Shown in pieces: positions 6,108 through 54,390 of a stretch of DNA of 64,000 bases. Position 1 is the first letter of the stretch. The number at the start of each line of letters is the position of its first letter. Location: positions 41,375 through 105,374 of the forward strand of contig DAOVQB010000001.1 in the NCBI GenBank assembly GCA_030628905.1. The letters run 5' to 3'. The stretch is from Candidatus Eiseniibacteriota bacterium. GTDB lineage: Bacteria > Eisenbacteria > RBG-16-71-46 > CAIMUX01 > WJJG01. The position numbers and the translations under genes are program-made. A model generated the notes under the pieces. It was not told where the DNA came from and did not search any database. It saw nothing but the letters and a program-made list of their open reading frames with translations.

Positions 6108-6158
6108 CGCCGTGTTGTTTCTAAGATGCTCCCATGATGTCTAATATGTGGAGGGCAG

Positions 6159-6977: not shown

Positions 6978-6988
6978 GGGGAAGCACT

Positions 6989-8338: not shown

Positions 8339-8367
8339 GGTAGCCGCCCGAATAGAAGAGGCTTCAG

Positions 8368-16317: not shown

Positions 16318-18162
16318 CTATCGTAGTAGAATCATCCGGGTAGACTCAACCAATCCGCCATTGATCTTGATCCGGCAGAAGTAGGCCCCGGCGGGGAGCG
16401 CAGCACCGTTCTCGGAGCGGCCATCCCACTGGACTACATGATTGCCGGCAGCCTGCAGTCCGACAAGGAGCAAGCGTAGCAAGCGGCCCTGCAGGTCACA
16501 GATTGCAACTTCCACTTGCGCCTGCTCTGCCAGACGGAAATGTATCGCCGCTCCACGGGACCCCTCCGCGCACGGGTTTGGGACGCATCTCAAGAATCCT
16601 GCATTCTGCACTGCGAACAGATCCTCATCTGCAAGACCTCCGGACTCCACATACTCATCCGCGCCCATATCGGGAGTGACCGGATCCCGGAGATCGTAGT
16701 CTATGTCGGTTGTGATCCCCACGAGCGGGGTTCCTGCTTCGATGCATGCGCTACCGGATTCCAGGTGAAGATCCTCCATATTCAAGCCCGGATCCCCAGA
16801 AAGCGAATGCTCATCTCGTGGCGCATATCCAGGGGCAGCCAGCAAGTCAGCAAGTGTATTGTAGAGCTCAGTGCCGATCATGGCCACAAAGCGGTTATCC
16901 AAAGGCTCCTCGGAATTGACACTCAGGAAATTGTAATCGCTTTCGGCGAATGCATCGGCAGCGTTGATCCTCAAGGCGTAGTGCCCGTCATCAGGATCAC
17001 CACCAGTTCTCTCATTGAGGATGATGTTGTTCTTGAGTTCATGATCGGTGAGTTCCCGTGAAGATCTCAAGCAGTAAGACTTTGTTCCCCTCGTATCAAC
17101 TCCTCCCATGTAAAGCGTATTGTAGAGGAAACGGTTGTTTGTGCCGTCACCTGAAGATATGTTAAGGCAAACGCTGCTGTTAGCTGATATTCCAGGAAAC
17201 AGATAAACGATGTTGTCGTAAACAACATTGCCATCGGAATTCCCGTACAAGTAAATCCCTTTTGAGCCGGACAATTCACTGTGCCTAAGATCGTGGATGT
17301 AATTGTGGTGGATATTAGTGCCGCTGTTAGTTCCGCCGACACTTATGCCATAAACTGAACTGCGAGCCATCTCGAAGGTTTGATAGATCTGATTTCCCTC
17401 TATGTCACAATCAACAACATTCGCATCGAGCTTGATCCCCATCTTCTGCCAGTCCCGGATGGTGTTGCCCGCGATGCGGAAATCGCGAAGTTCCATGCCG
17501 GTGTCGCAGTCGAGGAAAACACCGAAGGTGGAGCCTCCAACGATTTCGCAGTTAGAGAGAATGAAGCTATCCATTCCGAGGGATGGCTGGGGTACTTGAT
17601 AAGTGGAGCAATAGACAGGGGTGGACCAACCACTATCGTAGGGTGGCTCGCTGATGCTGTGGATGATTAGATTGTCTAGGCTGCAGTTATCAGAACCGTT
17701 TGATAGCCAGAAGACGAATACATCATCATCGGCGTTGCGATAGCCGCTGACGGTCATGTTCCTGGTATCCTGAACGGATTCATGGGGGCTGCCATTGAAG
17801 GTGATATGGTCAGAATTGTGGATACGGAAGGCAGAACTGAACTCGCCGGTGATGGTTACGTTGATTGCTACGATAGCATCAACATCGGGGCGAAATACCA
17901 CTGGACTCTCCGAGGTGGCATCAACATCAGAAATGATCAGATTGTCGTTCTCTTCGTAGACGCCATCTCGAATCAGAAAGGTAACGCCGCCATCGCCAAC
18001 GCCCTGCGTGTTGAGGTCCGCGATCGCGTCTTCCAGGGTTGCGTAGTGGGGCGATACGCCGCCAATGTACTTGAGCCCTGTGAGTTGAGCCTCTGCATGG
18101 GGAGGCGCCAGAATGACACAGAAGAGTCCAGCCAACAGCAACGCAAGTCTCTGAATATTCAT
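16318..18162 (-). CDS. Secreted right-handed parallel beta-helix repeat protein with a C-terminal sorting domain
   Basis: A signal peptide 'MNIQRLALLLAGLFCVILAPPHAEA' is present. Repeated 'G.N.I.(H/D)N.I' beta-helix rungs occur, for example 'NIHHNYIHDL', 'GNVVYDNIVY'. The CTD is 'GAYFCRIKINGGLVESTRMILLR'. Confidence 0.7.
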   Translation of the reverse strand: MNIQRLALLLAGLFCVILAPPHAEAQLTGLKYIGGVSPHYATLEDAIADLNTQGVGDGGVTFLIRDGVYEENDNLIISDVDATSESPVVFRPDVDAIVAINVTITGEFSSAFRIHNSDHITFNGSPHESVQDTRNMTVSGYRNADDDVFVFWLSNGSDNCSLDNLIIHSISEPPYDSGWSTPVYCSTYQVPQPSLGMDSFILSNCEIVGGSTFGVFLDCDTGMELRDFRIAGNTIRDWQKMGIKLDANVVDCDIEGNQIYQTFEMARSSVYGISVGGTNSGTNIHHNYIHDLRHSELSGSKGIYLYGNSDGNVVYDNIVYLFPGISANSSVCLNISSGDGTNNRFLYNTLYMGGVDTRGTKSYCLRSSRELTDHELKNNIILNERTGGDPDDGHYALRINAADAFAESDYNFLSVNSEEPLDNRFVAMIGTELYNTLADLLAAPGYAPRDEHSLSGDPGLNMEDLHLESGSACIEAGTPLVGITTDIDYDLRDPVTPDMGADEYVESGGLADEDLFAVQNAGFLRCVPNPCAEGSRGAAIHFRLAEQAQVEVAICDLQGRLLRLLLVGLQAAGNHVVQWDGRSENGAALPAGAYFCRIKINGGLVESTRMILLR

Positions 18163-21451: not shown

Positions 21452-21607
21452 GGGGCCATTCTAGTATGCTTCGCCCGGGGAATCGAGGCTTGGAACGGCC
21501 AATCCTCTTGAGGAAGAGATATGGTATCATTAGTAGTTGGGTTGGCTGGTCATCCTGCATGGCTGGCGGTTCCACGGATCCAGGTCACACACCGAGGGGG
21601 AGCTGCG

Positions 21608-24478
21608 ATGATCACGAGACGCCTTTTGCTGTCAGTCATTTCAATCATGCTGCTCGCTGTGCTATTTGCATGGCCGTTCGCGGCCATGGGCAACGCGACG
21701 CCCTGCGAGGCCATGGGAAGCGCGACGCCCTACGAGGCCATCCCAAGCAGCTCACTTCATTCCCACGTCTTGGGCGCCCAAACGACGGCGCCCACCGGGC
21801 GAATTGCCATCAAGTTCACGGACGAGAGCGGCCTGGTGGTGGAAGGGGGTTGTCTCGATCCCTCATCCCCGCATGCACAGCGCATGACTGATTTCCTTGC
21901 GGCTACCGCCCCGGCCTTCAGCCTACAGCGCCACTTCTCGCGCACCACGGCTGAGCTTGAGGCCGAGCGCCTTTTCGCGGAGCAGCGGGTGGGAGGACGG
22001 CTGCCCAACCTCAATCGCTACGCGCACCTCGATCCCACGCGAGCGGTTTCCCGCGCAGAATTGATGGAGACCTTGGAAGCGTTGCTGACCGATCCGGCTA
22101 TTGAGACTGCTTTCCTAGAGCCGGTGGCGGTGCCAGCCGCGCTCGGGTTTGATGCCTTCCATGGCACCTTCGAGCCGGAGATTCACCTGATGAATTCGCC
22201 GTCGGGCCGGACCCCCGACTTCACCGCTCTCCAAGGCTACCTCGGCCCGGCACCCGATGGCGTGGATGCCGAAGGGGTCTGGGGTATTCCAGGCGGTCGC
22301 GGCCAGACCGTCCAGGTGCTCGATATCGAAGGCGCTTGGCTCTGGGAACATGAGGATCTGCCGGATCCTTTCTTCACGGCCGGCGGCGTAGTCGGGGATC
22401 TGGGCTGGCGCAACCATGGCACAGCCGTTGCTGGCGAGATCCGGGGCACCGCCAACGGCTATGGCGTGAGCGGAATCAGCCATGAGGTGCAGATTGGCGG
22501 TGTCTCCATCGCGGAGCTGTGGGTCGCCGATGCGATCAACACGGCTGCCGCCAATCTGGAGTTGGGCGGCATCTACCTAATAGAGCTTCACGCTCCTGGA
22601 CCCAACGCCACTGGCTCAGGTCAGTTTGGCTACGTATGCATGGAATACTGGCAAGACAACTTCGATGCCATCCAGATCGCCACGGCCTGCGGGCGCATCT
22701 GCTGCGAAGCGGCCGGCAATGGGGAACAGGACCTGGATGCCCCGGTCTATCAGGGCCTGTTTGACCGCAACGTGCGCGACTCAGGCGCGATCATCTGCGG
22801 CGCCTCAAACGGAAGTAGTCTCGATCCCGCCTGGTATACGAACTACGGATCGCGCGTGGATCTTCATGGCTGGGGCTACAGCGTGGTCACCTGCGGCTAC
22901 GGAGATCTGCAAGGTGGGGATGAGGAGGAGTGGTATACCGAATCGTTTGCGGGCACCTCGAGTGCCACGCCGATCGTCACCGGATCAGTGGCTTGCATTC
23001 AGGGATTGGTTAAGGATGCCTTTGGGATCTGTCTGGAAGCCAAACTCGCGCGCGATATCCTGGTAGATACCGGCACGCCGCAGACCGGCAGCCAGCATAT
23101 CGGCCCGCGACCGAACCTGACGGCAGCGTGGTCCTTGGCTCAGAACGGCGTTGGGGCGGTCTATGGTGTGATTACCGACCTGAGCACGGGTCTCCCAGTC
23201 CAGGACGTTTCGGTGGTTGCGCAGGAGACAGGGGCGTTTACACAATCGGCCGCTGACGGCAGCTACTGCCTGCCGTTCCTGGTCGGTACCTATGCGCTTG
23301 ACTATGATTCCTTCTTCTACGAGCCGACTAATGAACTCGTGTCAGTGACCTCCGGGGATAGCACTGAGGTGAATGTGGCTCTGGTACGCAGAGCCACTGC
23401 CGAGATCACAGGGAGAGTCCTAGAGGATGATGCCCACACGCCGCTTGCCGATGTGCGCGTGACTCCACTGGATGTACCCCTGCCGGGCACTGTCACGGGC
23501 CCCGGTGGCTACTGGTTGCTGGAGGGTGTCCCGGTGGATCGAACCTATGGCTTCCTGTTCGACGGGCTGCCCCTCTACGGCGCGGATTTCAGGGAGCTGC
23601 ACGTGGAGGAGGGCGATACTGCCATCGTCGACTTCAACGTACAGCTTGCGCATGTTGCGGAGGATTTCGAGCTGGATGACGGTGGCTTTACAGTCACCGG
23701 CGATCCGATATGGGCCCATGGTACGCCGACAGCGGGCGGGCCTGCGTCCGGCTTCAGCGGCGAGAAGTGCTGGGGCGTTGGAATGGACGACAACTACGGT
23801 GACAATGTATACGGATGCCTGATCAGTCCGGCTTTTGATTTCTCCGGAGAGGAAGAACTGCTGCTCAGCTTCCACTACTGGTGTGAAACCGAATCGGGTT
23901 TTGATGGCGCGAATCTGCAGATCTGGGATGCTGGCACATCCGACTGGGTGACACTGATACCCCTGATGGGCTATCCGACGATAACCATGAGCGGGGTAGG
24001 CTATGAGAGTGGATGGTCCGGATCGACCGGCGGTTGGATCGGGACGGTCTTTGACTTGACCGACTACATCTCCGAGGAGGTGACCTTCCGCGTTCAGTTC
24101 GGCTCTGACGGCGGCCTCAATGACCTGGGCTTCTGGGTGGATGATATTGCTTTCGACACAGGTGATGTCTTTTCTGGAGTGCCTGAGACGGTACTTGAGG
24201 TCGGTTTCGGAATCATGGGCCACGCCCCAAACCCGCTGCATTGCACCACCCGCATTACGCTGGCCCTGCCCAGTTCAGGCGAAGTGAGCGTGGCGGTCTT
24301 TGATGCACCGGGACGGCTGATTCGTACACTCTACGATGGGTCTCTACCTGCGGGCCGCTCGGAGTTGATCTGGGACGGCTGCGATGATCGAGGGGCGCTG
24401 GCTGTCAGTGGCGTCTACTTCATCCGGATGGATGCCAATGGGCGCTCTTCGTCGCGACGGGTCATTCTGACCCGTTAG
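21608..24478 (+). CDS. Secreted subtilisin-like serine protease (S8) with carboxypeptidase-regulatory-like and MAM-like domains and a C-terminal sorting domain
   Basis: The catalytic triad context is D 'VQVLDIEG', H 'NHGTAVAG', S 'GTSSATPIVTG'. A signal peptide 'MITRRLLLSVISIMLLAVLFAWPFAAMG' is present. The CTD is 'GVYFIRMDANGRSSSRRVILTR'. A 27-bp in-frame tandem duplication sits at 21683-21736. Confidence 0.85.
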   Translation: MITRRLLLSVISIMLLAVLFAWPFAAMGNATPCEAMGSATPYEAIPSSSLHSHVLGAQTTAPTGRIAIKFTDESGLVVEGGCLDPSSPHAQRMTDFLAATAPAFSLQRHFSRTTAELEAERLFAEQRVGGRLPNLNRYAHLDPTRAVSRAELMETLEALLTDPAIETAFLEPVAVPAALGFDAFHGTFEPEIHLMNSPSGRTPDFTALQGYLGPAPDGVDAEGVWGIPGGRGQTVQVLDIEGAWLWEHEDLPDPFFTAGGVVGDLGWRNHGTAVAGEIRGTANGYGVSGISHEVQIGGVSIAELWVADAINTAAANLELGGIYLIELHAPGPNATGSGQFGYVCMEYWQDNFDAIQIATACGRICCEAAGNGEQDLDAPVYQGLFDRNVRDSGAIICGASNGSSLDPAWYTNYGSRVDLHGWGYSVVTCGYGDLQGGDEEEWYTESFAGTSSATPIVTGSVACIQGLVKDAFGICLEAKLARDILVDTGTPQTGSQHIGPRPNLTAAWSLAQNGVGAVYGVITDLSTGLPVQDVSVVAQETGAFTQSAADGSYCLPFLVGTYALDYDSFFYEPTNELVSVTSGDSTEVNVALVRRATAEITGRVLEDDAHTPLADVRVTPLDVPLPGTVTGPGGYWLLEGVPVDRTYGFLFDGLPLYGADFRELHVEEGDTAIVDFNVQLAHVAEDFELDDGGFTVTGDPIWAHGTPTAGGPASGFSGEKCWGVGMDDNYGDNVYGCLISPAFDFSGEEELLLSFHYWCETESGFDGANLQIWDAGTSDWVTLIPLMGYPTITMSGVGYESGWSGSTGGWIGTVFDLTDYISEEVTFRVQFGSDGGLNDLGFWVDDIAFDTGDVFSGVPETVLEVGFGIMGHAPNPLHCTTRITLALPSSGEVSVAVFDAPGRLIRTLYDGSLPAGRSELIWDGCDDRGALAVSGVYFIRMDANGRSSSRRVILTR

Positions 24479-31257: not shown

Positions 31258-34200
31258 TCAGCGCAGAAACAGCATGCGTTGGCACTGTTGCCGGCCGTCG
31301 GCTTCCAGCACATAGAAATAGACACCGCTGCCCACATGGCGGGCGCCAGCATCGCGGCCGTTCCAGCTACACAGGTGTTGCCCGCGCGGCATGGGGCCGT
31401 GGATCAATGTGCGCAGGAGACGTCCATTGGCATCGAAAACCTGCAGGCGTACGTTCGACGGTCTGGGTAGGTCGAATCGGATGCGTGCACAGGCATCTTC
31501 TGTGCCGAATGGGTTTGGACTGCTCTGGTGCAGCGCCAGGCAGGTAGGTAGCGCGGATGTGTCCCCAACCCCGGCAGCGCCGGGCGTGGAAGTGAAGACT
31601 TGTACATCATCGATGTACCAGCCATCTCCGAAGGCGGCATAGTCGCTCCCGAAACGGAAGCGTAGTTGCACCGTGCCCGTTACGCCCTCGATTGAGAAGC
31701 AGGCTTCCTGCCAGTCGAATGTGCCAGAGTAGAACGGCAACTCGGATGGGAAGGGCCCCGGCCCCTGCGGACGGTTGCGCACGAGGTTCGGATAACCGCC
31801 GACCGGTGAGATGTGTGTCCAGTCGCCGCCATCCACGGATATCTCGATTAGGCCTCCGTCATAGCCATAGGGTGGATACCAGGCACTGTCCTCCGCGTCC
31901 ATCCAGTGCCAGAAGGTCAATTCGCTGTTGCCCGCGAGCGGGAAGGGTTCGCTCACCAGGGCGCCGTCGGCGAAGGGCTCGTAATCACCGCCACTGTCAT
32001 CGCCGAATTTCCAGGCCCAGTTGCCGCCCGGTGTATGGTTCTCCTCCTCTGACAGATGCCATTGGTCCACGAAATCCTCCGTGACCACGTAGTGCGTCCA
32101 GGCGCCGGTCCCGCCTTCCATATCATCCGTGAAGAGCACTGGAAGAATCCAGAAGGCATAGATCTCCTCCGGCGGGTTGGGAGGATCGGTTGAGGCATTG
32201 CCGCCCACGTCGCGACCGCTGAGGTAGTAGTGGACCAAGGTGGTGTAGGGCTGGCCGGGAATGGAAGCCTTGTAGATGTTATCCCCCTGCTCCTCCAGCG
32301 GAATCGTCATCCATCCGCTGCCATTTGCGTTGTAGATCAGTGAGAGCTCTTCGAAATCTGAGTATTCAATGACGGTGGAGTAGATGTCATAGGGCCCTTG
32401 TGTGTCGGGGGTACTCGGGTAGTCAGTCGTTGCGCTGAAGGTTGGCGGCAGGGTGTCCTGGAGTGCGAAATTGATATTCGTCGCTTGCTCTTCGGCGATG
32501 ACAACCGCCCAGGCTGTGTCAGGGGCGAAGCTGGGATGCCGCGCGACTACCGTGTAGGTTCCCACCAGGACGCCGCCGCTATAGATCCCGTTCGAAGCGG
32601 CCGTCAACTGCTCACCGCTTTCAAGAAGATGGACAGTGGCCTGCCCCAAAGGAGTGCCACCGTTGGTATCGTTGGTGATCATCCCGGCGAGAGTTCCTCT
32701 CGGCTGGCAGGTGAGTGTGAGGAACTTGATGGCCCGTCCGCTTTGGATGAGTCTCCCGCCTGCGTTGTAGTAACCATAGTAGCTGTACATCAAGCCGTCG
32801 GTTTGATCTCCATTCTCGATTCCGACCGTACAGTAGTGCTGGATATGGTCGCTGTTGTTGAAGGTATCGTACTGGAAGAGGATGACGCCGTCACCGGTAG
32901 GAGTTGGGTAGTGGATCGGATCGTAGAGGATAGCCTCGAAATTCTGAACGGTGTTGCCTAGACGGTTTTTCACGCGGGCCCATTGAACAATGTAGCGGTG
33001 GTTGTCGGCGTCAAACCAATGATAGACCGTGTTGCTTCCGGAGGGATAGAGATCGTCCCACATGGGTGCGATCATGTAGTTGGGTGCACCGGCTGCCGGG
33101 ATGTTCCAATTGCGGCGATTGGTCAAGTATGTTGAGCCCATGGCCATCCATCCATTCGAGCAGATCGTGGCGCGCGTGAATGTCTCGCCGTAGTAAGTGA
33201 ATGGGAACGGCAGATCGATCGTCTCTGATTTTTCGTCTGTCATCGCCAGGGAGCTCCCGCTGCCCCCGTGGTTGGGATCGAGCTCGATCCATTCATAGGT
33301 GGGTGCTTGAGGGAAGGCGAGATCGGTATCGTCGAAGGCATAGTAGCCATAGGCGTCCGCTCCTGTCGGATCGTCCGCGTTTGGAGTGCCGATAGGCAAG
33401 GCCAAGTGGACCGTGTCCGTGAGCCCGCTGGAGAACTGCAGGGCGAGCACCATGGGAGCGATATGGCCGTTATAGCAGTAATTGGAAACAGTCAGGCCGA
33501 AGCGGTCTGCCGTGTTTTCCCCCACTGAATCCGCAGGGATTATCCCAAAGGATCCGTATCCATCGTCGACCGTCACCCACGGACTTTCGGAAATCAGGGC
33601 TCCGGTAACGCTGCTGGCTCCCGCACCGCCGAGGTTCAGGATCCGCACACTGATCTCCCCAGTCTCTCCCGGATCGATAGTGTCGCCAAAGCCCCATAGA
33701 GTAACGCCGTCGCAAGCGAAGTCGGCCGAAACAACTTGGATTTCGAGGAGTGCATGCCAGCTATCAGCCCCCGACTGCAGCTCCAGTCCCAAACGGATCA
33801 GGTGGCCATGTGGCGCGGCCGGGTCGATATGAATGTCGAAATCATCCTCGCTCCAGGCCGTTTCGCCACTGGGGATGTCACCGAAGGCTTCGGTGGCGTC
33901 GAGAATCGTGGTGTAGGGGTCGCCCGCAGCGGTGAGGGTGCCGGTTACTTCCGTGGCGACTTGAGTGCCGAAGTTCTCGACCAGCACCGGGATCTCAATC
34001 GTCTCGCCTGGATTGGGCACGTGGTCGCGGTTCCCGTTGCTGGATCCGAGCGTGTCATCGTCGATCAGATGTGTGTTGTAGGCGACATGTCTTTCGTGCT
34101 GCGTCACATTGATGGCTGCCAGATAGGGGTGGTGATCATGCTTGGTCACAGTGAGCTTCATCTCGCCCTCGGAGGGCGTGGTGACTGGCAGCTCGATAGA

Positions 34201-36363
34201 GCCGTCGGCGCAGGTGTATCCTCCCACGTGCGTGCATCCCTCCATCCAAAGGCAGACATATGCCTCCTCGCAGGGGAGACCATCGGCCGTGACGTGAATC
34301 GTCACGGTATTCGTTCCGATGGGGAGTTGTGTGGGGTGATCAACCTCGATGGCCTGCGGAACAGCGGTCCAGAGCTCGCCAGCCGAATCGCCCATCAGGT
34401 TGTTCCAATGTGAATAGGTTCGTACAGCCCCCATGTTGGCTTCAGCATAGTTGACATAAAGTTCGTACTTGGCGCGCGTTAGGGCAGCGCCGAAGTGAAA
34501 CATGTTTTCCCAGAAGATGCCCCGCCAAATGCCATAGACCACACAGTTGTTGTAGCGGGTGTGCGTGCCCGTTGTTGCGGTTCCGATACTGGCAATGCCC
34601 CCGGTCGGAGTGTTGGGGGGTACGCCGGCGCGGATCCATGCCTCGCTGCGCGCCAGGCCCTGGTTGAAGGAACCGGTGTCACAGGTAAGATTGACCGCGA
34701 AGGGCATCTTCCAGCCGTTTTGCAAGGCCAGGATGTGTCCCGTGCTGAAGCCGCTCATGTTGTAATAGCCGCGGTAGCTGAAGACAGTGTCGCCGCGATT
34801 AATGCAGTTGCGGATGCCACTGACCCAGGGCGATGTGAAAACAGTGTCAATATCTGCGTAGCCGTAGGAGCTAAGTCGCGTCTTGAGCCACTGCGCGATT
34901 TGAATGCAGGTATATCCGGAATAGGAGGGGTCGCCCACGAGACATGCGCGCGTATACCAATCCGTCTCCGCCATATAGGGAGTGCTTTCATAGCCAACGA
35001 TCTTGGTGACATAAAGCTGCAGGCCATCGACCGAGTCGACGGAGATGCGGCCGATGTGGGCATCGGGGAGCAGATCGTCTCCATCGAGCTTGACATAGGG
35101 GTGGTCGGCCGATCCGCCTCCGTAGAGCCAACAGGGGATCGATATATCGCCATTGGCATCTCCGATAAGTGTGATGTATTCAGGCGGGTTGTCCCAAGTT
35201 GCATAGGCGAACCTGAGCCAGTCTTGAATGTCTTCCTTGCTTGCTCCGGTCTCCGTGGTCGTTACCAGGTGGACTTCGTAGCCCTTGCGTGCACGCCATT
35301 CAACGAGCGGTTCGAGGGCGGCAAGGATTTCGGGGTCATCCGGACAGATGATGACATAGGTTCCCAGGGAGACGACTTGAGCGTTGCGAGAGCCCGTATG
35401 GCTGCAAGAACCCGTATAGTTAACGACCAAGTTGCGGTAGAGCTGATCAAAGGAAGAGGAGAGGACCGGATGAATGCGGGGCGCGCTGTTGCGCACGTCT
35501 TGGCCGGAGAATGTGATCTGGATCTGGATGCGCGTGGCGACCTCGAGGGTTTCTCGGGCAGGGTCATAGCGGACCGGGTGGATGGTGATCGGCACCACCC
35601 GCAGGCCGCGTGCGATTGCCGGGTCCCCCAGGTGCGCCCACTGCGCTGGATGATCGGCCGCAGGAGCATCGGCAGCATAGGCATTGCGATTGATGACGAA
35701 GCCTGATGCCTCATCGGGCTGTACTGGTAGGGGCCGGAAACCGGCAACCTCTGTTGTCTCTAGGCTCACAATCTCAAGGTGGGCGGCAACGCAAGCGGGG
35801 ATCTCAATCAGCCGGGAGAAGGACGGAAGCATCGGTGCACCCACCTGACCGGTGAAACCGCCACCCCCGATCTCCAGGATGGGGAAGCTCCCGGCCTCGA
35901 TCTGCAGGACGTGAAAGGTCTCGCCCGCGATCTCCAGTGGGAGGGCATGTAGGGAGGGCAGCTCGAACTCGAGCACAAGACCCTCTTCTATCGAACCAAG
36001 CGTGTGAATGGAGGGCGTCTCCTGCCGACTTGAAGCCCTGGAGAGAAGTGCAAGTTCCCTGTACTTGGGAGCGGCAGTAACGCGAGGGACAGTTGGGACG
36101 CAGGGCGCGAGCTGCTGCCGCAAGGCGCTTGCAAGCAGCGTCGGGATCTTGGATCCGCCCGGGTCAGTGACCATGGAGTCAGCGTGCGGTGAAGTACCAG
36201 CGTTCACGGACGACCCGCCGGATGCAAGGGTTGTGGTCGTCAGTATGGCAATGGCAAGGGGCGTCAGGCGCCGATGCATGTGTTCCTCCCGAGCGGAAGT
36301 GACCTGGGCCAAAAGGGGGGGAGCAGAAGCCCAGCATGAGCCAAGGCAACCGATTTCATACAA
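31258..36363 (-). CDS. Giant (1701 aa) secreted peptidase C25 (gingipain-like) multidomain protein with a C-terminal sorting domain
   Basis: The signal peptide is 'MHRRLTPLAIAILTTTTLASGGSSVNA'. The C25 core carries 'YITLIGDANGD...GRISVDS', 'YRGYYNMSGFSTGH' (His region) and 'AVNLTCDTGSF' (Cys region). Multiple beta-sandwich-like domains follow. The CTD is 'GVYFYVLEADGRQQCQRMLFLR'. Confidence 0.8.
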   Translation of the reverse strand: MYEIGCLGSCWASAPPLLAQVTSAREEHMHRRLTPLAIAILTTTTLASGGSSVNAGTSPHADSMVTDPGGSKIPTLLASALRQQLAPCVPTVPRVTAAPKYRELALLSRASSRQETPSIHTLGSIEEGLVLEFELPSLHALPLEIAGETFHVLQIEAGSFPILEIGGGGFTGQVGAPMLPSFSRLIEIPACVAAHLEIVSLETTEVAGFRPLPVQPDEASGFVINRNAYAADAPAADHPAQWAHLGDPAIARGLRVVPITIHPVRYDPARETLEVATRIQIQITFSGQDVRNSAPRIHPVLSSSFDQLYRNLVVNYTGSCSHTGSRNAQVVSLGTYVIICPDDPEILAALEPLVEWRARKGYEVHLVTTTETGASKEDIQDWLRFAYATWDNPPEYITLIGDANGDISIPCWLYGGGSADHPYVKLDGDDLLPDAHIGRISVDSVDGLQLYVTKIVGYESTPYMAETDWYTRACLVGDPSYSGYTCIQIAQWLKTRLSSYGYADIDTVFTSPWVSGIRNCINRGDTVFSYRGYYNMSGFSTGHILALQNGWKMPFAVNLTCDTGSFNQGLARSEAWIRAGVPPNTPTGGIASIGTATTGTHTRYNNCVVYGIWRGIFWENMFHFGAALTRAKYELYVNYAEANMGAVRTYSHWNNLMGDSAGELWTAVPQAIEVDHPTQLPIGTNTVTIHVTADGLPCEEAYVCLWMEGCTHVGGYTCADGSIELPVTTPSEGEMKLTVTKHDHHPYLAAINVTQHERHVAYNTHLIDDDTLGSSNGNRDHVPNPGETIEIPVLVENFGTQVATEVTGTLTAAGDPYTTILDATEAFGDIPSGETAWSEDDFDIHIDPAAPHGHLIRLGLELQSGADSWHALLEIQVVSADFACDGVTLWGFGDTIDPGETGEISVRILNLGGAGASSVTGALISESPWVTVDDGYGSFGIIPADSVGENTADRFGLTVSNYCYNGHIAPMVLALQFSSGLTDTVHLALPIGTPNADDPTGADAYGYYAFDDTDLAFPQAPTYEWIELDPNHGGSGSSLAMTDEKSETIDLPFPFTYYGETFTRATICSNGWMAMGSTYLTNRRNWNIPAAGAPNYMIAPMWDDLYPSGSNTVYHWFDADNHRYIVQWARVKNRLGNTVQNFEAILYDPIHYPTPTGDGVILFQYDTFNNSDHIQHYCTVGIENGDQTDGLMYSYYGYYNAGGRLIQSGRAIKFLTLTCQPRGTLAGMITNDTNGGTPLGQATVHLLESGEQLTAASNGIYSGGVLVGTYTVVARHPSFAPDTAWAVVIAEEQATNINFALQDTLPPTFSATTDYPSTPDTQGPYDIYSTVIEYSDFEELSLIYNANGSGWMTIPLEEQGDNIYKASIPGQPYTTLVHYYLSGRDVGGNASTDPPNPPEEIYAFWILPVLFTDDMEGGTGAWTHYVVTEDFVDQWHLSEEENHTPGGNWAWKFGDDSGGDYEPFADGALVSEPFPLAGNSELTFWHWMDAEDSAWYPPYGYDGGLIEISVDGGDWTHISPVGGYPNLVRNRPQGPGPFPSELPFYSGTFDWQEACFSIEGVTGTVQLRFRFGSDYAAFGDGWYIDDVQVFTSTPGAAGVGDTSALPTCLALHQSSPNPFGTEDACARIRFDLPRPSNVRLQVFDANGRLLRTLIHGPMPRGQHLCSWNGRDAGARHVGSGVYFYVLEADGRQQCQRMLFLR

Positions 36364-46349: not shown

Positions 46350-47636
46350 GTGGAGCCGTTGGGGGATAAGGTGAATATCACTCTGCTGGCCCTGATGCTG
46401 GCCCTGGTGCTGCTCTCGGCTTTTTTTTCTGGGTCGGAGGCTGCGCTTTTCTCCGTCACGAGGGTGCAAGTGCACCAGATACGCGCACGCCGGGACAAGC
46501 CCTCCCGCAGGATCCTCGCTCTACTTAACAATCCCAGCCGCACACTGACTACGTTGCTTGTTGGCAACAATCTCGTGAACATCGCTCTGTCTTCGATTTG
46601 CACGGTGTTCTGCCTCATGGTGTTCGAGGACAGGAACAGGGCGGTGGAGATCTCGGCCGTGGCCGTCACGCTGACCGTGCTTCTCTTTGGTGAGACGACC
46701 CCCAAGACCCTGGCCGTGAATTACGCCCTGGGGGGTTCCCGGGTGGTCTCCGGGAGCCTGCTGTTCTTCAGCCGGGTGCTGGGTCCCGTTACCCGGTTCG
46801 TCCACGGTCTCTCTATGTTGGTGCTGCGGGCGCTGGGAATGGAGGAGAGTGTTTCAGTTCCGAGAGCATTGATCTCGCGCGCTGAGCTGCGGGCCGTGCT
46901 TGAGGATGTGGACAAGGAAACCTCGGTGATCACTCGCCGTGAGAGCCGCATGGTTCAGAACATCCTCGATTTCTCCCGCCGTACGGCCGAGCAGATCATG
47001 ACACCACGAGTGGATGTCGTTGACCTCAATATGGCCGAGGCGCCCAAGCGATGTGTAGATCTCATGCGCGAGACACGCCACTCGCGCTATCCTGTTTTCG
47101 ATGAGGATCCGGACAATGTGCTCGGATTCGTCAAGGCCAAGGAGTATCTCCTCAATCCCGACAAGGGGATCCGTGAGCTCCTGCGCCCGGTGGTCTTTTT
47201 CCCCGAGACTGCTCCAGTAGACCGCATCTTCTCGGAGATGCAGAGTTCCCGAACTGCGATGGTGATTGTGGTCAACGAGTACGGGGAGACAGTGGGCTTG
47301 GTCACGCGGGAGGACGTGATCGAGGAGATCGTGGGTGACATATACGACGAGTTCGATCTGGAAGAAGTGCCCATCAGGAAGAAAGGGGAGGGTCTCTATA
47401 TTCTCCGGGGACGATCGGATCTCTCAGACCTCAACGAAGAACTGGGGCTAGAGCTTCCGGACGAGTCATCGGTTACGCTCAACGGCTTTCTGTGCGAGGT
47501 GCACGGAAAGATCCCGCGTCCCGGTACGGTGGTGGCGTGGAGAAACCTGCGCTTCCATGTAATGGAAGTGGCCCGCCATCAGGTGCGCAAGGTTCTCCTG
47601 GAGATCCCGGAGGGGAAGCGGGGGGACGAAGCATGA
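46350..47636 (+). CDS. CNNM/CorC/HlyC-family transporter-associated protein (DUF21 + CBS pair + CorC_HlyC)
   Basis: The DUF21 TM region is 'ITLLALMLALVLLSAFFSGSEAALFS' and 'GETTPKTLA'. The CBS region is 'ITRRESRMVQNILDFSRRTAEQIMTPR'. A C-terminal transporter-associated domain is present. Confidence 0.85.
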   Translation: MEPLGDKVNITLLALMLALVLLSAFFSGSEAALFSVTRVQVHQIRARRDKPSRRILALLNNPSRTLTTLLVGNNLVNIALSSICTVFCLMVFEDRNRAVEISAVAVTLTVLLFGETTPKTLAVNYALGGSRVVSGSLLFFSRVLGPVTRFVHGLSMLVLRALGMEESVSVPRALISRAELRAVLEDVDKETSVITRRESRMVQNILDFSRRTAEQIMTPRVDVVDLNMAEAPKRCVDLMRETRHSRYPVFDEDPDNVLGFVKAKEYLLNPDKGIRELLRPVVFFPETAPVDRIFSEMQSSRTAMVIVVNEYGETVGLVTREDVIEEIVGDIYDEFDLEEVPIRKKGEGLYILRGRSDLSDLNEELGLELPDESSVTLNGFLCEVHGKIPRPGTVVAWRNLRFHVMEVARHQVRKVLLEIPEGKRGDEA

Positions 47637-48895
47637 CGGTTGCAGATATCCTCCGTCATCTGATCCTCATCCTACTGGCCCTCGGAGGATCGGCCTACTT
47701 CTCGGCCGCGGAGATGGCGCTCATCTCTGCCAACCCGCTTCGTGTGCGCCAGCGGGCCAAGGCGGGCGTCTCCTCCGCCCAGCGCGTCCGCCGGCTCCTC
47801 GAACGCCGCGAGCACATATTGATCATGTTCCTGATCGGCCAGGCCGGGTTGAACGTATTGAGTGCGGCCATCACGACGGACCTTGTCGACCGGTGGCTGG
47901 GTCACGGATTGGCTGCTCCGATCATCTCGATTGTCTGTGTCACACTAGTGGTTGTTGTGGTTGCCGAGATCGTGCCGAAGGTGATTGGCAAGCGGGAGGG
48001 TGATCGCCTCCTCATGCAGCAGGTTCGGGTTCTGGAGTTTTTGCACTATCTCTTTCTCCCGCTTACACAGTCTGTACATCTCTATGTCAAGTTCCTGCTG
48101 CGGCTCGTGGGTCGCGGCCGCAGTTCGCCATTTGTCACCCGGGAGGAACTCAAACTCCTCGTGCGCGAGGCGCAGATAGAGGATGAGTCGGCCCACCGAG
48201 AGAAGCGGATGCTCGAATCGATCCTGGAGTTCCGCGAAACCGTGGCGCGGGAGATCATGATCCCCATGAACCAGGTGATCGCACTTGAGAAAGGTACGAC
48301 CTGCGAGGTCTGGCGCGCCATGGTTCGCAGGCACGGCTATACACGCATCCCGATCTACAAGAAGCAGATCGACCATGTGATCGGCGTCGTCAATGTCTTT
48401 GATCTGCTCTACGATGCCGACCCCAAGGATTCCGTGGATGACTATGTCCGTGAGATACCGATTGTGCCCGACTCGAAGCGCATCGATCACCTACTCGTGG
48501 AACTGCAGAAGACGCGCAATCCGATGGCGGTTGTGGTCGATGAGTTCGGATCCTGCGGGGGAGTGGTTACGGTGGAGGACATAGTTGAGGAGATCGTAGG
48601 CGAAATGGCCGACGAGCATGAACGGTCCTTCCGCAAGATCCGTCGGCTGGCGCCTGGGGTCTTCATTGTCGAAGGACTTACTGATATCGACGATTTGAAT
48701 CAGCAGCTCGGCCTGCAGCTGCCCCAGGGGCGCTATGACACAGTGGGGGGTCTCGTGCTCAGTCGGGCGGGACGGATTCCGCGCGAGGGGGAGCGGTTCG
48801 GTTTGCAGAACGTCACCTTCGAGGTGCTTGATGCGGATGCTTACGCTGTTCGCGTGGTCAAGGTGACACTGCCGAAGGAGGATCAATCCCGATGA
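47633..48895 (+). CDS. Second CNNM/CorC/HlyC-family paralog. Its start overlaps the previous stop (ATGA).
   Basis: 'ILRHLILILLALGGSAYFSAAEMALIS', '...AEIVPKVIG...' and 'KRMLESILEFRETVAREIMIP' show the same architecture as the upstream gene. Confidence 0.85.
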   Translation: MTVADILRHLILILLALGGSAYFSAAEMALISANPLRVRQRAKAGVSSAQRVRRLLERREHILIMFLIGQAGLNVLSAAITTDLVDRWLGHGLAAPIISIVCVTLVVVVVAEIVPKVIGKREGDRLLMQQVRVLEFLHYLFLPLTQSVHLYVKFLLRLVGRGRSSPFVTREELKLLVREAQIEDESAHREKRMLESILEFRETVAREIMIPMNQVIALEKGTTCEVWRAMVRRHGYTRIPIYKKQIDHVIGVVNVFDLLYDADPKDSVDDYVREIPIVPDSKRIDHLLVELQKTRNPMAVVVDEFGSCGGVVTVEDIVEEIVGEMADEHERSFRKIRRLAPGVFIVEGLTDIDDLNQQLGLQLPQGRYDTVGGLVLSRAGRIPREGERFGLQNVTFEVLDADAYAVRVVKVTLPKEDQSR

Positions 48896-49956
48896 AGAAG
48901 CGGCAACAACCTACCGCGGCGGCCGGAGCGCGCGGCGGGCGGAATCAAACCGGCGCGATATGGAAGAGAAGCGCAAGCACATTCCAGGTGGGCTTGGCCT
49001 TGCTTATCGCGGCGGCTCTAGCCCCATGGGCTGCAGTTGCTAGCGGTGACACGGCTGACTTCCAGAGCATGGCTGGGAACACAACTGCGGCTGTGGTGGC
49101 AGGCAGTGGTGGGGCCATCTACTACTCCTCCGGTAGCCATGTCACGTTTCAACCCTCTTCTGTTGAGAATCTCGAGGTGGATCTGTGGGGCGCTGCGGAA
49201 AACGGGTCGGGCCGCTTCTTTGTGGTGGGGGATGAGGGGACGATTCTGATCTCCAGCGGCGCTCATGGCGCGGCTTTCATCGCAGAAGCCTCCCCGACCA
49301 ATTACGCCCTCTACTGTGTCGTGGCCTTTGCGAGCTGCATGGTGGCTGCGGGAGATGGGGGCACGCTAGTGCGCAGCACCTCGCTATTGGGGGGTGGCTG
49401 GACCTCTCAGAGCACGGGCACACAGAAAACGCTGTATGATCTGGCCCAAGGCAACTCGGTCGCTGTTGCGGTTGGAGAGGGCGGAACAATCCTCAAGGGG
49501 AGCATCCATGGCACTGGATGGACGCCCGTTCCTGATGCACCGGCTCCTGGGGCGGAGCTGCGCGGCATAACGGTGCTGGGAGATCAGCGGTTTCTGGCCG
49601 TGGGCTTGGGGGGCACGGTGATCCGTGGCCTGGCAGATGGATTGAGCTGGGAGGTTTTGACCTTTCCTCCAGAGTGTGATCTGTATGATGTGGCCGCCAG
49701 ACCAGGTGCACAAGCGTTAGTCGTGGCGGTTGGGGAAGGTGGCATGGTGTTCACATCGAGTGATGCGGGCGAGACCTGGGAGCCGGCCGACTCCCCGGTC
49801 AATCGCACCCTTCGAAGCGTCGTTTACACCGGAAATGATTTCCTTGCCGCCGGAGATCACGGAACCTTGCTCCGCTCACTGTACGGAATCGTCTGGGACG
49901 ATCTGACCCCTATCCGCAAGACGAGCTGGGGAAAACTCAAGGGATTGTTCCGCTGA
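48892..49956 (+). CDS. Secreted BNR/Ycf48-like beta-propeller repeat protein
   Basis: A signal-like N-terminus is present. The 'G(E/D)GGT(I/L)L' + 'D.G.TW' units are repeated at least 5 times. The start overlaps the stop of the preceding gene. Confidence 0.55.
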   Translation: MKKRQQPTAAAGARGGRNQTGAIWKRSASTFQVGLALLIAAALAPWAAVASGDTADFQSMAGNTTAAVVAGSGGAIYYSSGSHVTFQPSSVENLEVDLWGAAENGSGRFFVVGDEGTILISSGAHGAAFIAEASPTNYALYCVVAFASCMVAAGDGGTLVRSTSLLGGGWTSQSTGTQKTLYDLAQGNSVAVAVGEGGTILKGSIHGTGWTPVPDAPAPGAELRGITVLGDQRFLAVGLGGTVIRGLADGLSWEVLTFPPECDLYDVAARPGAQALVVAVGEGGMVFTSSDAGETWEPADSPVNRTLRSVVYTGNDFLAAGDHGTLLRSLYGIVWDDLTPIRKTSWGKLKGLFR

Positions 49957-50088
49957 GAGGGTGTTAGGCATGGCATGCGGATACGCGGCGGCAGCAGATG
50001 GGCAGTTAGTAATGCGGGCTCCCGCAGCGCATCTGAGCGCCACTATACTCGACAGCCACGCCGCGTTTGATGTCGTTGATAGGGAATA

Positions 50089-53000
50089 GTGAGTATGGGG
50101 CGGAAGAAGCGGGTCCCCCGAGTGATGGCGGCCCACAGTGTGGGCGTCCGATGGATCACGCTGATCTACTTCTGTTCGGGGATCTGCTCCCTGATCGATG
50201 AAGTCGTTTGGGTCCGCCTGCTCAAGCTGACTTTGGGCAACACCGTCTACGCCTCGAGCATTGTGATTTCGATGTTTATGGGTGGGCTGGCGCTCGGAGC
50301 CCTCCTGATGACCCGCTTTGCAGATCGAGTCGAGCGACCGCTGCGGCTCTATGCGCTCCTCGAAGTCTGCGCTACGTTCTCGGCCCTGTCGTTGCCGATC
50401 GCCCTGCGCTTTGCCGATCAGGGATACCGCTGGTTCTATACACAGGCCCATCCATCGCCCGCGGGGCTGCTCGCTCTCCAGGTGATCGTGTCAGCCGTCC
50501 TGCTATTGGTGCCGGCGATGGTGATGGGCAGCACCCTGCCACTCCTCAGCCGGTATGTCACCGCGGTGCACGACCGGGTAGGACGCCTGGTCGGGCGCCT
50601 CTATGCGCTGAATATGCTGGGGGCCACGCTCGGCACGTTCCTCGCCGGCTTCGTGCTCATCCGCAGTGTCGGGGTGATGGGCACGCTCTACATTGCCGCG
50701 GGCATCAACCTATTGGTTGCTGTGAGCGGGTGGGTTCTTGCCCGCTCCCAGGCGAGCGTTCCCACGGCACCAGCGGACGCTGGGGGGGGGGGCGAGAGCT
50801 GGTCCCTGGCACGGAGGAGAAAGAACGCAAGCGGCTTCTCCTCATGGCAGCCTTCTTTGTTAGTGGCCTTATCAGCATCGGCTATGAGCTTGTCTGGATG
50901 CGGAGTATTGTCATTCCGATCGGCGGGTACACCTATGTTTTCAGCGCCGTTCTGACGATCTACTTGCTTGGCAATGTGGTCGGGGCTGGGATTGGAAGCT
51001 GGCTATCAAAGCGGCTCGTTTCTCCAGCGACCGGCTTTGGAATCAGTCTGACTTGCGTCGGGCTCTTTGGGATCGTCCACATTCCCTGGCTGGGCACCTG
51101 GCATTTGGACCTCGGTCCCCAGCTTCTAGAGGCTCTCTTCGGCGGCCTGCGCCGGACGTTCAGCTTCCAGGCGATGGGTCTGCCGCTGTTCTACAGCACA
51201 CTGCTCTTCTTCATACCCTCGCTAACGATGGGGGTGGGCTTCCCGCTTGCGCTGCAAGCGTGGAGCAACTACGTGGGCAAGGTAGGACAAACGACCGGCA
51301 CGGTCTACGGCGCCAATACAATTGGATCGGTGCTGGGCGGTGTGATGACCGGCTTCGTGCTCATCCCGCTCCTCGGTGCTCAAGTCGCTATCACGGTCCT
51401 GGGGCTTGCGGGGATCTTGCTCGGCGGAGCACTGATCCAGCTTTTTGCTCCGTGTCTAACGCGGCTACAGCGGGCCGGAATCCTCGCATTGGCGGTAGGC
51501 CTGACGATCACCACGATCTTTATTCCATCCGATCTGTTTGAGCGACGTATCGTGAGCACTCCGGGCGACGTGACGTTGGCGGCCCGGGAAGGGGTCACGA
51601 CAACGGTAGCCGTGAAGCGAACTGCGGACGGCACGCTCATCCTGACGTCGGACGGCGTGCATGTCGCCGGCGATGGCCTCCACCGTTCGGCACAGAAGAT
51701 GCTGGGTCATTTAGGGGTGCTCCTCAACACCACTGCCAGCGATGTATTGACGGTGGGGTTTGGATCTGGTGAGACATCGGACTGCCTAGCGCGGCACGGC
51801 CTGAACTGTATAGATTGTGTTGAGATCGCCCCGGAACTGGTGGAGGTCGCACTGGAGTATTTTGGGCATCTTAATCTGGGTGCGGAGCTTGACCACCACG
51901 TCCGAATGATCTACATGGATGCCAAAAACTATCTTCACCTGACCGATCGGAAGTACGACATCATCATCAACGACGCGGATATCCCCAGCTATGCGGGCAG
52001 CGCGCCTATCTTTGCAAGGGAGCATTTCCAGAGCGCCGCGGACCATCTCAATCCCGGTGGGCTCTTCATTACCAAACTCCATCTGACTGGCATCTCCCTC
52101 TCCAGCTTTGACAGCATCCTGGGCACCCTCCTCCAAGTCTTTCCTTATACAACCGTCTGGTTTCCGACTACGAAGGCATTTTCCTTCTTCTATCTCGTCG
52201 GCGCGCAGCAGGAGCAGATGTTCTCGCCGCGGTATGTTGAGGGGGAGCTGAGTAAGGAGGGCGTGCGCGAGAGCGTTGCCTACCTGAACTACAGTAGTAG
52301 CCACGATCTCTTCAGCTGCTACCTTGGCGACCAGAACGACATCCGCCGGTACCTGCGGGAATACAAGGTCAACAGCGATTACAGGCCGTTTGTGGAGTTT
52401 AATCTCGAGCAACGCGGGTCCGGGCTGCTGGATGCAGTCTATGCGCCGTTCTTGCAGGCTGTCAGGCGCGGTTCGCTGGACCGGCACCTCGACTGGAGTG
52501 GCATGTCAGACGGCGAACGGGAGCAGTGGGAGCGGGATCAGGAACGCCACGACCGCGCCGCGTCCTATCTGCTCAAGCTTCCTCGACGCCAAGACAGCTT
52601 CACCCGTATGGCCAGCATCTGCGATGGCTTGCGCATCATGCCGGATCACCCGGCTCTCCGTGATCAGGAGCGCAAGGGGCTGGTCCTAGCTCAGCAGGCC
52701 GTCATGGGTGGTATGAGTGAGCAGCTGCTGGCGGGGGCCGATGCGTTTTTGGTGGAACGGCCGCAGTGCGGATCCGTTTGGTTGATCAGGTCCTGGGCCT
52801 TGGAACGCCGCGGTGACATCAACGGGGCCCTCAAGGCTTGCGAGCGGGCGGAGCAATATGCGCCCGATCGCTATCTTGTGCATACGCAGCTTGGTCGATT
52901 GCTCTTGCGCCTGGATAATTTGGAGGAGGCGGTCGAGCATTACGAGGTGGCGTTGGAGCTCGAGCCGCAAAGCGCCGCGGGGCACGGAGGTCTGGCGCGC

Positions 53001-53378
53001 GTGCTGGTTCGCCAGCAGCACTTCAGGTCGGCGATAAGCCACTACCGCGAGGCTCTGCGCATCGATCCAGATCGGCTGACGACACTCAATGGTCTCGCCT
53101 GGCTCTTGGCGACCTGCCGGGATGCCAGCTTGCGCGATGCAGCCGAAGCCATCAGATTGTCCGAGCGGGCGTGTGAGCTGGCCCAGGGTGAGTGGATGCA
53201 GCTTGACACCAAGGCGGTAGCCTATGCCGCCGCGGGCCGGTACACTGAGGCCGTGGCGACCGCCGAGGAAGCGATCCGGGAGACGCAGGGCGGGCCCGGT
53301 GTGGAGGCTGTGCGGGAGATGCGCGTGCGTCTCGAGCTGTTCAAGGCCCAACAACCGTATGTCGAGGAACACCCCTAG
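50089..53378 (+). CDS. Fused polytopic membrane domain (internally duplicated) plus spermidine-synthase-like aminopropyltransferase domain plus C-terminal TPR repeats. The reading frame is interrupted by a poly-G tract at ~50782-50792 (frameshift or pseudogene).
   Basis: Frame 1 (50089-50955) encodes a 6-7 TM domain. After the G-run, frame 0 (from ~50800) encodes a second, similar TM domain 'LLLMAAFFVSGLISIGYELVWMRS...', then the PABS-like 'VLTVGFGSGETSDCLARHGLNCIDCVEIAPELVEVALEYFG...DIIINDAD' and TPR repeats. Confidence 0.65.
50782..50792 (+). repeat. Homopolymeric G tract (~11 G) at the frameshift point
   Basis: Direct reading: 'gacgctgggggggggggcgagagc'. Confidence 0.9.
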
Positions 53379-53460
53379 TGAGCGACATCACCTAGCGGCT
53401 CCGCTGTTGCGTGCTCAATTCGGTACAAGCTGCACCAAATAGCTAGTTCAGTCAGCCTCC

Positions 53461-54390
53461 CTACTGGAGCAGGCCCTTGATCCGGTAGGCGACCATGCGG
53501 TCTTCATCCGATGCGAGGAGTAGCTCGATTTCGCCCTTGTCGATCGTGACGACGCCGCAGCTCTCGCAGCGCTCTACCTTGATGCTGTCGAACTCGTGCT
53601 CGGTGAGGTACTCGCCGCACTTGGGACAGGTCATCCAGAAGCCCTCATCCCCCAGTTCGAGTTCCCGGTCCGCGCGCGCTCGGTCCAGTTCACGGCGTCT
53701 TTCGGCGATTCCGGCTACGGGAGTATCCAGGAAGCTCTCTTCTTCATCGAATGTCTCATAGGATAGGTCGGATTCGCAGGGCGGCGATTCCTCGGAGGAT
53801 GATTCCTCTGGGCATACGTTTTCTTCGCCGAGAGATGAATCGGATCCAGCTTCCAGATCCGTGATGGCTGGGGTCGGTTCATCAAGGATGCCTGTATCCA
53901 GAGTGGCGGTGCGTTCGGTTTCCATGGCCCGCAAGCGTTCGCTGGTTTCTTCCAGGCGCTGGAGAGCCTCATCGCGTTGCTGGCGCAACTGCTCAAGGTC
54001 CCGTTGCAGGGCGGCAATCCGTTCCTCGGAGGTCTTGATCCTGGCGGCAGATGCGCTTGTCTGCGGAATCGGCCGCTTGGTAAGGCCCTTGGGGGGCCTT
54101 TTGCGTGCGCCAATCCTCTTGGCGGCGGCCACTTTCCTAGCAGGCGTCTTCCGGGAAGCGGTCCTCTTTGGGGCACTCCTGCGGGCAGCAGAACCCTTGG
54201 GGGGCCTTTTACGCGCGCTAGCAGTCTTGGCGGCGGCTCCCTTGCGGGAAATGGTCTTCCTACGCGCAGAGGACCCTCTTGGAGCGCTCTGGCGCCTGGC
54301 CGGCTTCCCGGCAGCCACCTTCCGGCCGGATGCGCCTGTGGCTTTCCTACCGCTTGCTGAACCCCTGGAACGCCTTACTCCAGTCGCCAT
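53461..54390 (-). CDS. Multipartite protein: a basic Ala/Arg/Lys-rich H1-like N-terminal region, then a coiled coil, then an acidic segment, then a C-terminal double CxxC zinc-ribbon (zf-TFIIB-like)
   Basis: '...RKATGASGRKVAAGKPARRQSAPRGSSARRKTISRKGAAAKTASARKRPPKG...' is followed by 'ALQRDLEQLRQQRDEALQRLEETSERLRAMETE' and ends with 'MTCPKCGEYLTEHEFDSIKVERCESCGVVTIDKGEIELLL'. Confidence 0.5.
   Translation of the reverse strand: MATGVRRSRGSASGRKATGASGRKVAAGKPARRQSAPRGSSARRKTISRKGAAAKTASARKRPPKGSAARRSAPKRTASRKTPARKVAAAKRIGARKRPPKGLTKRPIPQTSASAARIKTSEERIAALQRDLEQLRQQRDEALQRLEETSERLRAMETERTATLDTGILDEPTPAITDLEAGSDSSLGEENVCPEESSSEESPPCESDLSYETFDEEESFLDTPVAGIAERRRELDRARADRELELGDEGFWMTCPKCGEYLTEHEFDSIKVERCESCGVVTIDKGEIELLLASDEDRMVAYRIKGLLQ

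Follow-up and report, generated by a model that had tools for sequence, protein, structure and literature searches.

An 11-G tract interrupts the reading frame of an otherwise intact fused MFS/spermidine synthase-type gene in a Candidatus Eiseniibacteriota contig

The G tract and the frame break

We analysed a stretch of 64,000 nucleotides (nt) of contig DAOVQB010000001.1 (positions 41,375 to 105,374; assembly GCA_030628905.1, Candidatus Eiseniibacteriota bacterium), referred to here as the window, and within it a locus where two overlapping open reading frames (ORFs) of the forward strand meet at a homopolymeric run of G. The first ORF spans 50089–50955 and has 288 amino acids in frame 1, and the second lies in frame 3, which is open from 50208 to a stop codon ending at 53378. 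The run itself occupies 50782–50792 on the + strand and consists of exactly 11 G. Adding one G (12 G) gives a single ORF of 1096 amino acids, and removing two (9 G) gives a single ORF of 1095. We conclude that this is one gene and not two, and that it encodes an inner-membrane protein of about 1096 residues composed of a 12-helix MFS region, a 13th helix, a SpeE (spermidine synthase) fold and a solenoid of tetratricopeptide repeats (TPRs). The features of the locus are collected in Table 1.

The frame switch can be placed closely. When the joined protein was compared with the window by tblastn it gave two high-scoring segment pairs (HSPs), residues 1–237 in frame 1 (50089–50799) and residues 233–1096 in frame 3 (50784–53375), and their junction lies on the tract. 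From conservation within the protein family, the upstream frame holds up to ...GWVLARS (about 50755) and the downstream one applies from ...PGTEEK (about 50803) onwards, so that the switch must occur within a stretch of about 48 nt that holds the tract. The in-frame peptide across the junction is …ADAGGGGRELVPGTEEK… and the nonsense-tail peptide is …GGGGESWSLARRR…; in the alignments, no homologue has a counterpart of this out-of-frame tail. A first-pass annotation, made from the sequence alone, had described a poly-G tract of about 11 G shifting the frame of a fused protein of about 1090 residues, and had read the locus as one gene broken at a homopolymer, either by a sequencing indel or at a slipped-strand, phase-variable or pseudogenising site. 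The tract, the frame switch and the protein length all agree with that description, and its reading of the locus is essentially right.

The (G)11 tract is the sole homopolymer run of at least 9 in the window, the remaining long runs being three G8 and one C8. From base composition 0.16 runs of 11 G are expected per window, and 12 of 100 shuffled sequences contained one. We nonetheless regard the run as meaningful, although it is unremarkable by composition, because it coincides with the sole frame break. A promoter and terminator scan of 49700–53600 returned nothing above shuffle expectation, and tblastn found no paralogue of the joined protein in the window.

Table 1. Features of the interrupted gene and other G runs in the window (residue numbers refer to the 12-G reconstruction; TM, transmembrane helix).
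Feature	Coordinates	Strand	Evidence or remark
5' part of the gene: N-terminal tail, MFS N-lobe (TM1–6, residues 13–221 = 50125–50751) and first half of the inter-lobe loop	50089..50781	+	Frame 1
Start codon candidates of the 5' part	GTG 50089 or ATG 50095	+	
(G)11 frameshift site, encoding a Gly run (residues 232–235) in the predicted disordered TM6–TM7 loop	50782..50792	+	AlphaFold2 pLDDT below 50 only here (232–234); tblastn HSPs meet
Out-of-frame tail of 54 codons (ESWSLARRRK...SAPF), stop 50953–50955, overlapping the true downstream frame	50793..50955	+	ORF translation
Remainder of the loop and MFS C-lobe (TM7–12, residues 243–453 = 50814–51446), in the -1 frame relative to upstream	50793..51446	+	Halves homologous
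Internal start candidates	ATG 50844 (M253), possible; ATG 50898 (M271), database gene call	+	
13th hydrophobic helix (residues 459–476), joining the MFS fold to the soluble module	51462..51515	+	AlphaFold2 helix, hydropathy and charge pattern
Spermidine-synthase-fold domain (N-terminal beta sheet and Rossmann fold, residues ~495–760)	51570..52367	+	
Pfam Spermine_synth match (residues 535–705)	51690–52202	+	
Cofactor motif GFGSGET (residues 557–563), in the place of GGGDG in SpeE	51756–51776	+	
C-terminal all-helical/TPR solenoid (residues ~808–1086), then stop 53376–53378	52509..53378	+	Pfam TPR_2, TPR_1, TPR_8, TPR_16 and others (~899–1069); AlphaFold2 helix pairs
G8 runs	5168, 11640, 13318		

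Domains and relatives of the reconstructed protein

The 12-G reconstruction passes the NCBIfam model NF037959, 'fused MFS/spermidine synthase', with 133 bits against a cutoff of 40. In Pfam it matches MFS_1 above threshold (residues 44–344), Spermine_synth (residues 535–705) and many TPR models at about 900–1070, which bears out the spermidine-synthase-like domain and the TPR repeats of the first-pass annotation. The MFS-type region and the Spermine_synth-type domain are thus both encoded, yet they lie in two frames as assembled and form one polypeptide only with 12 or 9 G. The domain of six to seven transmembrane (TM) helices proposed upstream of the tract was recovered with six helices, and the second TM domain downstream is indeed homologous to it (BLASTP between the halves, E=7e-15, 26% identity).

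More than 2,556 relatives are present in the protein database. The best full-length relatives have 1000–1100 amino acids and are 45–56% identical, and they come from Planctomycetota, Latescibacterota, Verrucomicrobiota, Fibrobacterota, Spirochaetota and other metagenome-assembled genomes (MAGs); where the source gives a name, it is 'fused MFS/spermidine synthase' or 'spermidine synthase'. A literature search on the fused MFS/spermidine synthase family found nothing relevant, and the family is large and named but unstudied. We aligned the protein with its homologues in sets of 15 and 114 sequences, the latter including the window protein, and we collected 46 homologous genomic loci by scanning a genome collection (GTDB species genomes; the scan did not return the window's own genome), all of them at most about 59% identical. 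All of the aligned homologues read through the junction as single ORFs, and 45 of the 46 loci have no frame break; the exception, L039, is broken at a different site.

The junction falls in an unconserved loop between the motifs ...GGWxLSR and LxxAFFxSGLISIGYELIWMRS. Measured between the anchors S218 and L252 this loop is 33 residues long in 71 of the 114 members, which is the commonest length, and the window protein has 33 residues there with 12 G and 32 with 9 G. It is alone among the 114 in having four consecutive Gly in the inter-lobe loop. In the window's genes, GGG accounts for 24% of Gly codons.

An AlphaFold2 model built from the 114-sequence alignment (mean predicted local distance difference test score, pLDDT, of 92.9; predicted TM-score, pTM, of 0.90) contains twelve TM helices in two homologous six-helix lobes, the arrangement of an MFS protein. 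As modelled, what had been called a duplicated polytopic domain is the N- and C-lobe of a single 12-helix MFS fold, with the tract in the central, cytoplasmic loop between TM6 and TM7. The architecture as first described, a duplicated polytopic domain followed by a spermidine-synthase-like domain and TPRs in a little-characterised family, therefore stands as to the order of its parts and the lack of a literature, with the duplicate reinterpreted as the two lobes of one fold. Residues 222–242, which surround the only segment of low confidence, have no secondary structure in the model, and an extra Gly in such a loop is predicted to be harmless. No sequence match to a solved MFS structure was found by phmmer against the PDB at E up to 1. 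The charge pattern across the 114 members fits the usual N-in topology of MFS proteins, and this topology together with the 13th helix would probably place the SpeE-like and TPR module outside the cytoplasm, in the periplasm. We note that such a location is odd for a SpeE-like module, as S-adenosylmethionine (SAM) and decarboxylated SAM are not expected there.

The enzyme-like domain departs from spermidine synthases in its cofactor loop. All SpeE equivalog models score below their cutoffs (TIGR00417, 56.2 against 249.55; NF002010, 67.9 against 260; NF002956, 138.8 against 472). In the alignment, VGFGSGET of the window protein stands opposite IGGGDGGV of AtSPDS1, and within the 114 members G557, G559 and G561 never vary and E562 and T563 hardly do; because the motif is GFGSGET, the Asp of GGGDG is missing family-wide. 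The Asp of the GGGDG loop selects decarboxylated SAM. The amine-binding or catalytic D-S-[ST]-D-P stretch is represented here by INDADIP, in which the first Asp aligns but the second is one position off, and 'ND' is only the majority consensus in the family. METTL13, a SAM-dependent methyltransferase with the same fold as SpeE, was also matched. Since GGGDG is replaced, the SpeE equivalogs failed and METTL13 matched as well, we do not classify the protein among the spermidine synthases; judged by these motifs the domain has a SpeE fold but may not be an aminopropyltransferase.

The location of the break exactly in the inter-lobe loop raises the question of a deliberate split, in which an N-lobe gene and a gene for the C-lobe, enzyme-like domain and TPRs yield products that assemble non-covalently, as in split MFS permeases. 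The downstream part does resemble natural single-TM-domain membrane 'polyamine aminopropyltransferases' (NF002956 aligns with residues 243–683), and initiation at ATG 50844 would leave TM7 intact. We nevertheless give this explanation hardly any weight, the least of those considered: the two ORFs share about 110 nt, and a nonsense tail of 54 residues closes the first; there is no ribosome-binding site near ATG 50844, the sole Shine-Dalgarno-like sequence, GGAGGAG at 50813–50819, lying 24 nt before it; none of the 46 homologous loci is split at this junction; and the coincidence with a homopolymer suggests accident and not design.

Programmed recoding would make the 11-G sequence functional as it stands, with the full-length protein produced by a -1 ribosomal frameshift or by RNA polymerase adding a G. 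The downstream frame is indeed -1 relative to the upstream one, and tRNA-Gly could re-pair perfectly anywhere in the run. However, no stimulatory structure was found: the predicted RNA fold of 50760–50900 has a z-score of +0.95 against shuffles, the only neat hairpin begins about 21 nt after the run where a spacing of 5–9 nt was looked for, and Rfam gave no match. Transcriptional slippage, moreover, is documented mainly for A/T runs. No shift is needed at the junction in the other homologous loci or in the aligned full-length homologues, none of which has a run here, and we consider recoding very improbable.

There is no sign of decay in either half of the gene. At columns with at least 95% conservation across the other 113 sequences, 73 of 76 residues upstream of the tract and 101 of 103 downstream are retained in the window protein, and all five deviations at these 179 positions (174 kept) are conservative; no second lesion was found in the 3.3-kb gene. 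As the conserved columns are kept and the changes are conservative only, we take the break to be young. These observations speak against a fixed pseudogene, that is, a real -1 deletion by which the gene was inactivated for good and is heading to decay, as does the expectation that a tract of this length would revert readily. What can be said for a pseudogene is that only the out-of-frame state has ever been assembled, and that no operon partner is evident, because none of the nine neighbouring proteins compared with the 46 loci by tblastn found a homologue there that might have given a functional clue. On balance we regard it as improbable.

Assemblies of the locus and the origin of the 11-G state

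The locus is represented in two further assemblies. The exact downstream product (P0001) is recorded for an ENA re-assembly of SAMN18200505 (L001, a 63-kb scaffold), and a partial product of 900 amino acids (P0121) for GCA_023128935.1, Candidatus Eisenbacteria (L002). Both have 11 G, and over the rest of their sequence they match the window at 100% identity, save that a 108-bp repeat is present in one extra copy. This in-frame tandem repeat, which lies within the neighbouring gene 53461–54390 (window 54086–54260; L001 6185–6471), has two copies in the window and three in the ENA and GCA_023128935.1 assemblies, a difference that is either a copy-number polymorphism or a repeat collapse; because the window has two copies and not three, we regard it as a separate assembly of the same population. 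The deposited ORFs carry the names 'fused MFS/spermidine synthase, partial' and 'tetratricopeptide repeat protein, partial', and an exact look-up of the 286-residue upstream product returned no record. We also observed that GCA_023128935.1 is broken some 80 nt 5' of the tract, where one contig ends inside the gene at about 50700 (P0136, 202 residues) and the next, L002, begins at 50676, an overlap of about 25 nt; the break may reflect graph ambiguity or a drop in coverage.

The first-pass annotation had proposed a comparison with the orthologous locus in related genomes, and this could be realised in part: neither the protein database nor the GTDB species genomes nor the JGI metagenomes contain a close relative or an in-frame version of the protein, and the 46 more distant loci show no break at this junction. 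A protein search centred on the junction recovered fragments only, namely P0136, which is identical and ends before the tract, and P0142, which is 80% identical and stops short of the loop; no relative of more than about 60% identity covers the loop. A search of the JGI metagenomes for the exact flanks with a variable gap, aimed at same-species contigs with another tract length, matched nothing.

A technical artefact is the most serious of the rival explanations, and we give it a substantial though minority chance. The genome would then have (G)12 and an intact 1096-residue gene, and one G would have been dropped by stutter during the polymerase chain reaction (PCR) or cluster amplification, or by the path chosen by an assembler. 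Restoration of both the frame and the modal 33-residue loop by 12 G is what would be expected, as is the absence of decay in either half; the break upstream of the tract in GCA_023128935.1 hints at the ambiguity or coverage drop mentioned above, and in a different MAG another gene of the family (L039) likewise loses its frame at a run of G. Stutter in Illumina PCR libraries is, furthermore, deletion-biased and grows with repeat length (PMC11878640). Against this, three assemblies made with different pipelines all have 11 G, the G8 runs of the window lie in intact genes, and L039 needs two extra G, which is atypical for one-step stutter. It also counts against an artefact that reversible-terminator chemistry has no intrinsic homopolymer miscount, and that at 11–12 nt the true allele normally stays in the majority.

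The quality of the surrounding sequence was considered as well. When the 20 long ORFs of the window were scanned against Pfam none showed a frame break, and recognisable domains were found in 16; the overlapping ORFs 4843–5427 and 5343–6107, examined as a further frameshift that might have marked a poor assembly, proved to be two complete genes, for HPPK and a deoxynucleoside kinase. The data stem from a cold-seep project in the South China Sea (PRJNA707313; run SRR13892594 of sample RS_17), which comprises 22 further runs and five other Eisenbacteria MAGs; it used Illumina HiSeq X Ten 2x150 reads with MEGAHIT and MetaWRAP (PMC9357000), and Illumina data do not come from an error-prone long-read platform.

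Our preferred reading, which we hold at about an even chance, is that the assembled state is a slippage allele, recent and reversible, in which a hypermutable (G)12/(G)11 tract of an otherwise intact gene has changed by -1. We favour it because a run of 11–12 G is long enough for slipped-strand mispairing during replication, and simple-sequence repeats (SSRs) are known as indel hotspots that cause on/off switching (PMC3315296; PMC8437040). The in-frame state would be (G)12, from which loss of one G by slipped-strand mispairing would give (G)11, and this 11-G 'off' allele would be the prevailing one in the cold-seep population that was sampled. Translation of the off allele would begin at 50089 or 50095, stop at 50953–50955 and yield only the N-lobe with the nonsense tail. 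There would be just three routes to the remaining ~844 residues, comprising the C-lobe, the enzyme-like domain and the TPRs: initiation at the internal ATG 50844, close to which there is no Shine-Dalgarno sequence; rare slips of the ribosome by -1 on the G run; or a tract that regains a G. We infer that the 11-G count is real, that tract length varies among cells and that expression of the off state is as described, and the off state may retain some residual function.

Several points weigh against a slippage allele. The intactness of both halves and the fit of the 12-G version to the family loop length are equally expected from a technical miscount, and PCR-containing Illumina libraries preferentially lose repeat units (PMC11878640). 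Apart from one repeat the three assemblies do not differ at all (100% identity), and for this reason they probably stem from one population and perhaps even from common reads. The databases hold the 11-G state only, and among 5.8 billion clusters none represents the protein in frame. Finally, the window has no other long tract and no homologue has a run in this loop, and since the tract stands alone in the window and is lacking from homologues nothing points to a switching strategy across the genome or the family.

One other family gene has a long G run. The closest of the 46 loci, L039 (CAZDKK010000039.1, uncultured bacterium binchicken_co66_46; 59% identity in its best segment), is also frameshifted, and its break coincides with a G8 at 5687–5694 inside the invariant VGFG(S/G)GET motif; the tblastn HSPs pass from frame 2 to frame 3 there, and G10 restores the length of the motif. 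In the 47 loci, window included, only two G runs of at least 8 lie inside family genes, those of the window and L039. As both are out of frame, G runs in these GC-rich genomes appear to be recurrent trouble spots, whether biological or technical. A C13 run at 3837–3849 of a Verrucomicrobia MAG (L033, JABGQM010000019.1) abuts a scaffold gap (NNNNNNNNN) upstream of the homologue and was dismissed as a likely scaffolding artefact. In the same MAG a second long ORF, 7189–9675, lies directly 3' of the homologue (locus 3920–9675) and matches the query only in its TPR-like C-terminal part.

Some features of the neighbourhood are recorded here in their own right. Two genes upstream is a tandem pair of CNNM/CBS/CorC_HlyC paralogues, putative divalent-cation efflux proteins (46350–47636 and 47492–48895, +), followed by a gene for a BNR/Ycf48-like beta-propeller protein (48892–49956) that stops about 130 nt short of the frameshifted gene. 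Downstream, the gene at 53461–54390 (-) encodes a protein whose N-terminal region is rich in Lys, Arg and Ala and of the HC2 (histone H1-like) type, and which has a zinc ribbon at its C-terminus. Several large secreted-type proteins of the window, encoded at 16318–18162 (-), 21521–24478 (+) and 31258–36363 (-), end in an FlgD_ig-like domain; they are a C25 gingipain-like peptidase of 1701 amino acids, an S8 subtilase of 985 amino acids and a protein of 614 amino acids. Being shared, the domain may serve this lineage as a common tag for sorting or secretion.

Possible phase variation and comparison with known systems

A further proposition is that (G)11/12 is a selected contingency switch, by which an uncultured, free-living cold-seep member of the Eisenbacteria alternates between an envelope protein in which the MFS, enzyme and TPR parts are covalently fused and a form that is truncated or split. 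The tract has the form required of such a locus, a (G)11 within an ORF in which changes by single units shift the frame, with 12 or 9 G in frame. Only 11 G is seen, however, in the three assemblies of one population, and none of the 46 homologous loci has a run of at least 8 in this loop. Nothing beyond the tract itself supports a selected contingency locus, and we consider one unlikely. Were it true, it would place SSR phase variation outside host-associated pathogens, and on an uncharacterised family of envelope-modifying enzymes.

The consequences of the other readings are more modest. At the level of annotation, two adjacent ORFs that have been deposited separately are one gene broken at a homopolymer. 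Mixed tract lengths, if they occur, would mean repeat-mediated on/off switching in an uncultured sediment phylum. The family may be the more rewarding subject, with thousands of members in many phyla that combine an MFS fold, a SpeE-fold domain lacking the decarboxylated-SAM motif and a TPR platform, the last two apparently on the outer face of the membrane.

Homopolymer frameshifts and the fused MFS/spermidine synthase family are both already known kinds, and the locus can be compared with established examples of each. The poly-G/C contingency loci of Campylobacter, Neisseria, Helicobacter and Haemophilus resemble it in having a G run of at least 8 in the first quarter of the coding region, in toggling the frame by one-base changes and in encoding an envelope protein (PMC3315296; PMC8437040). 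They differ in that here there is one tract in 64 kb, in a free-living sediment bacterium, with no conserved tract in relatives and no on allele among the databases. The long form of NF037959 with C-terminal TPRs (the JGI 'predicted membrane-bound spermidine synthase') has the same order of parts, an MFS-type TM region, a SpeE-fold domain and TPRs, and the window gene alone is interrupted at a (G)11 run. Among the closest known MFS proteins are DHA1-like transporters (VMAT2, 9kqa; VAChT, 8zmr; SotB, 6kki; NorA), in comparison with which the window protein has an extra 13th helix and a C-terminal module of about 600 residues. With canonical SpeE (PF01564; Thermus thermophilus 1uir, Thermotoga maritima 1inl/1jq3) it has the fold in common, fused here behind 13 TM helices.

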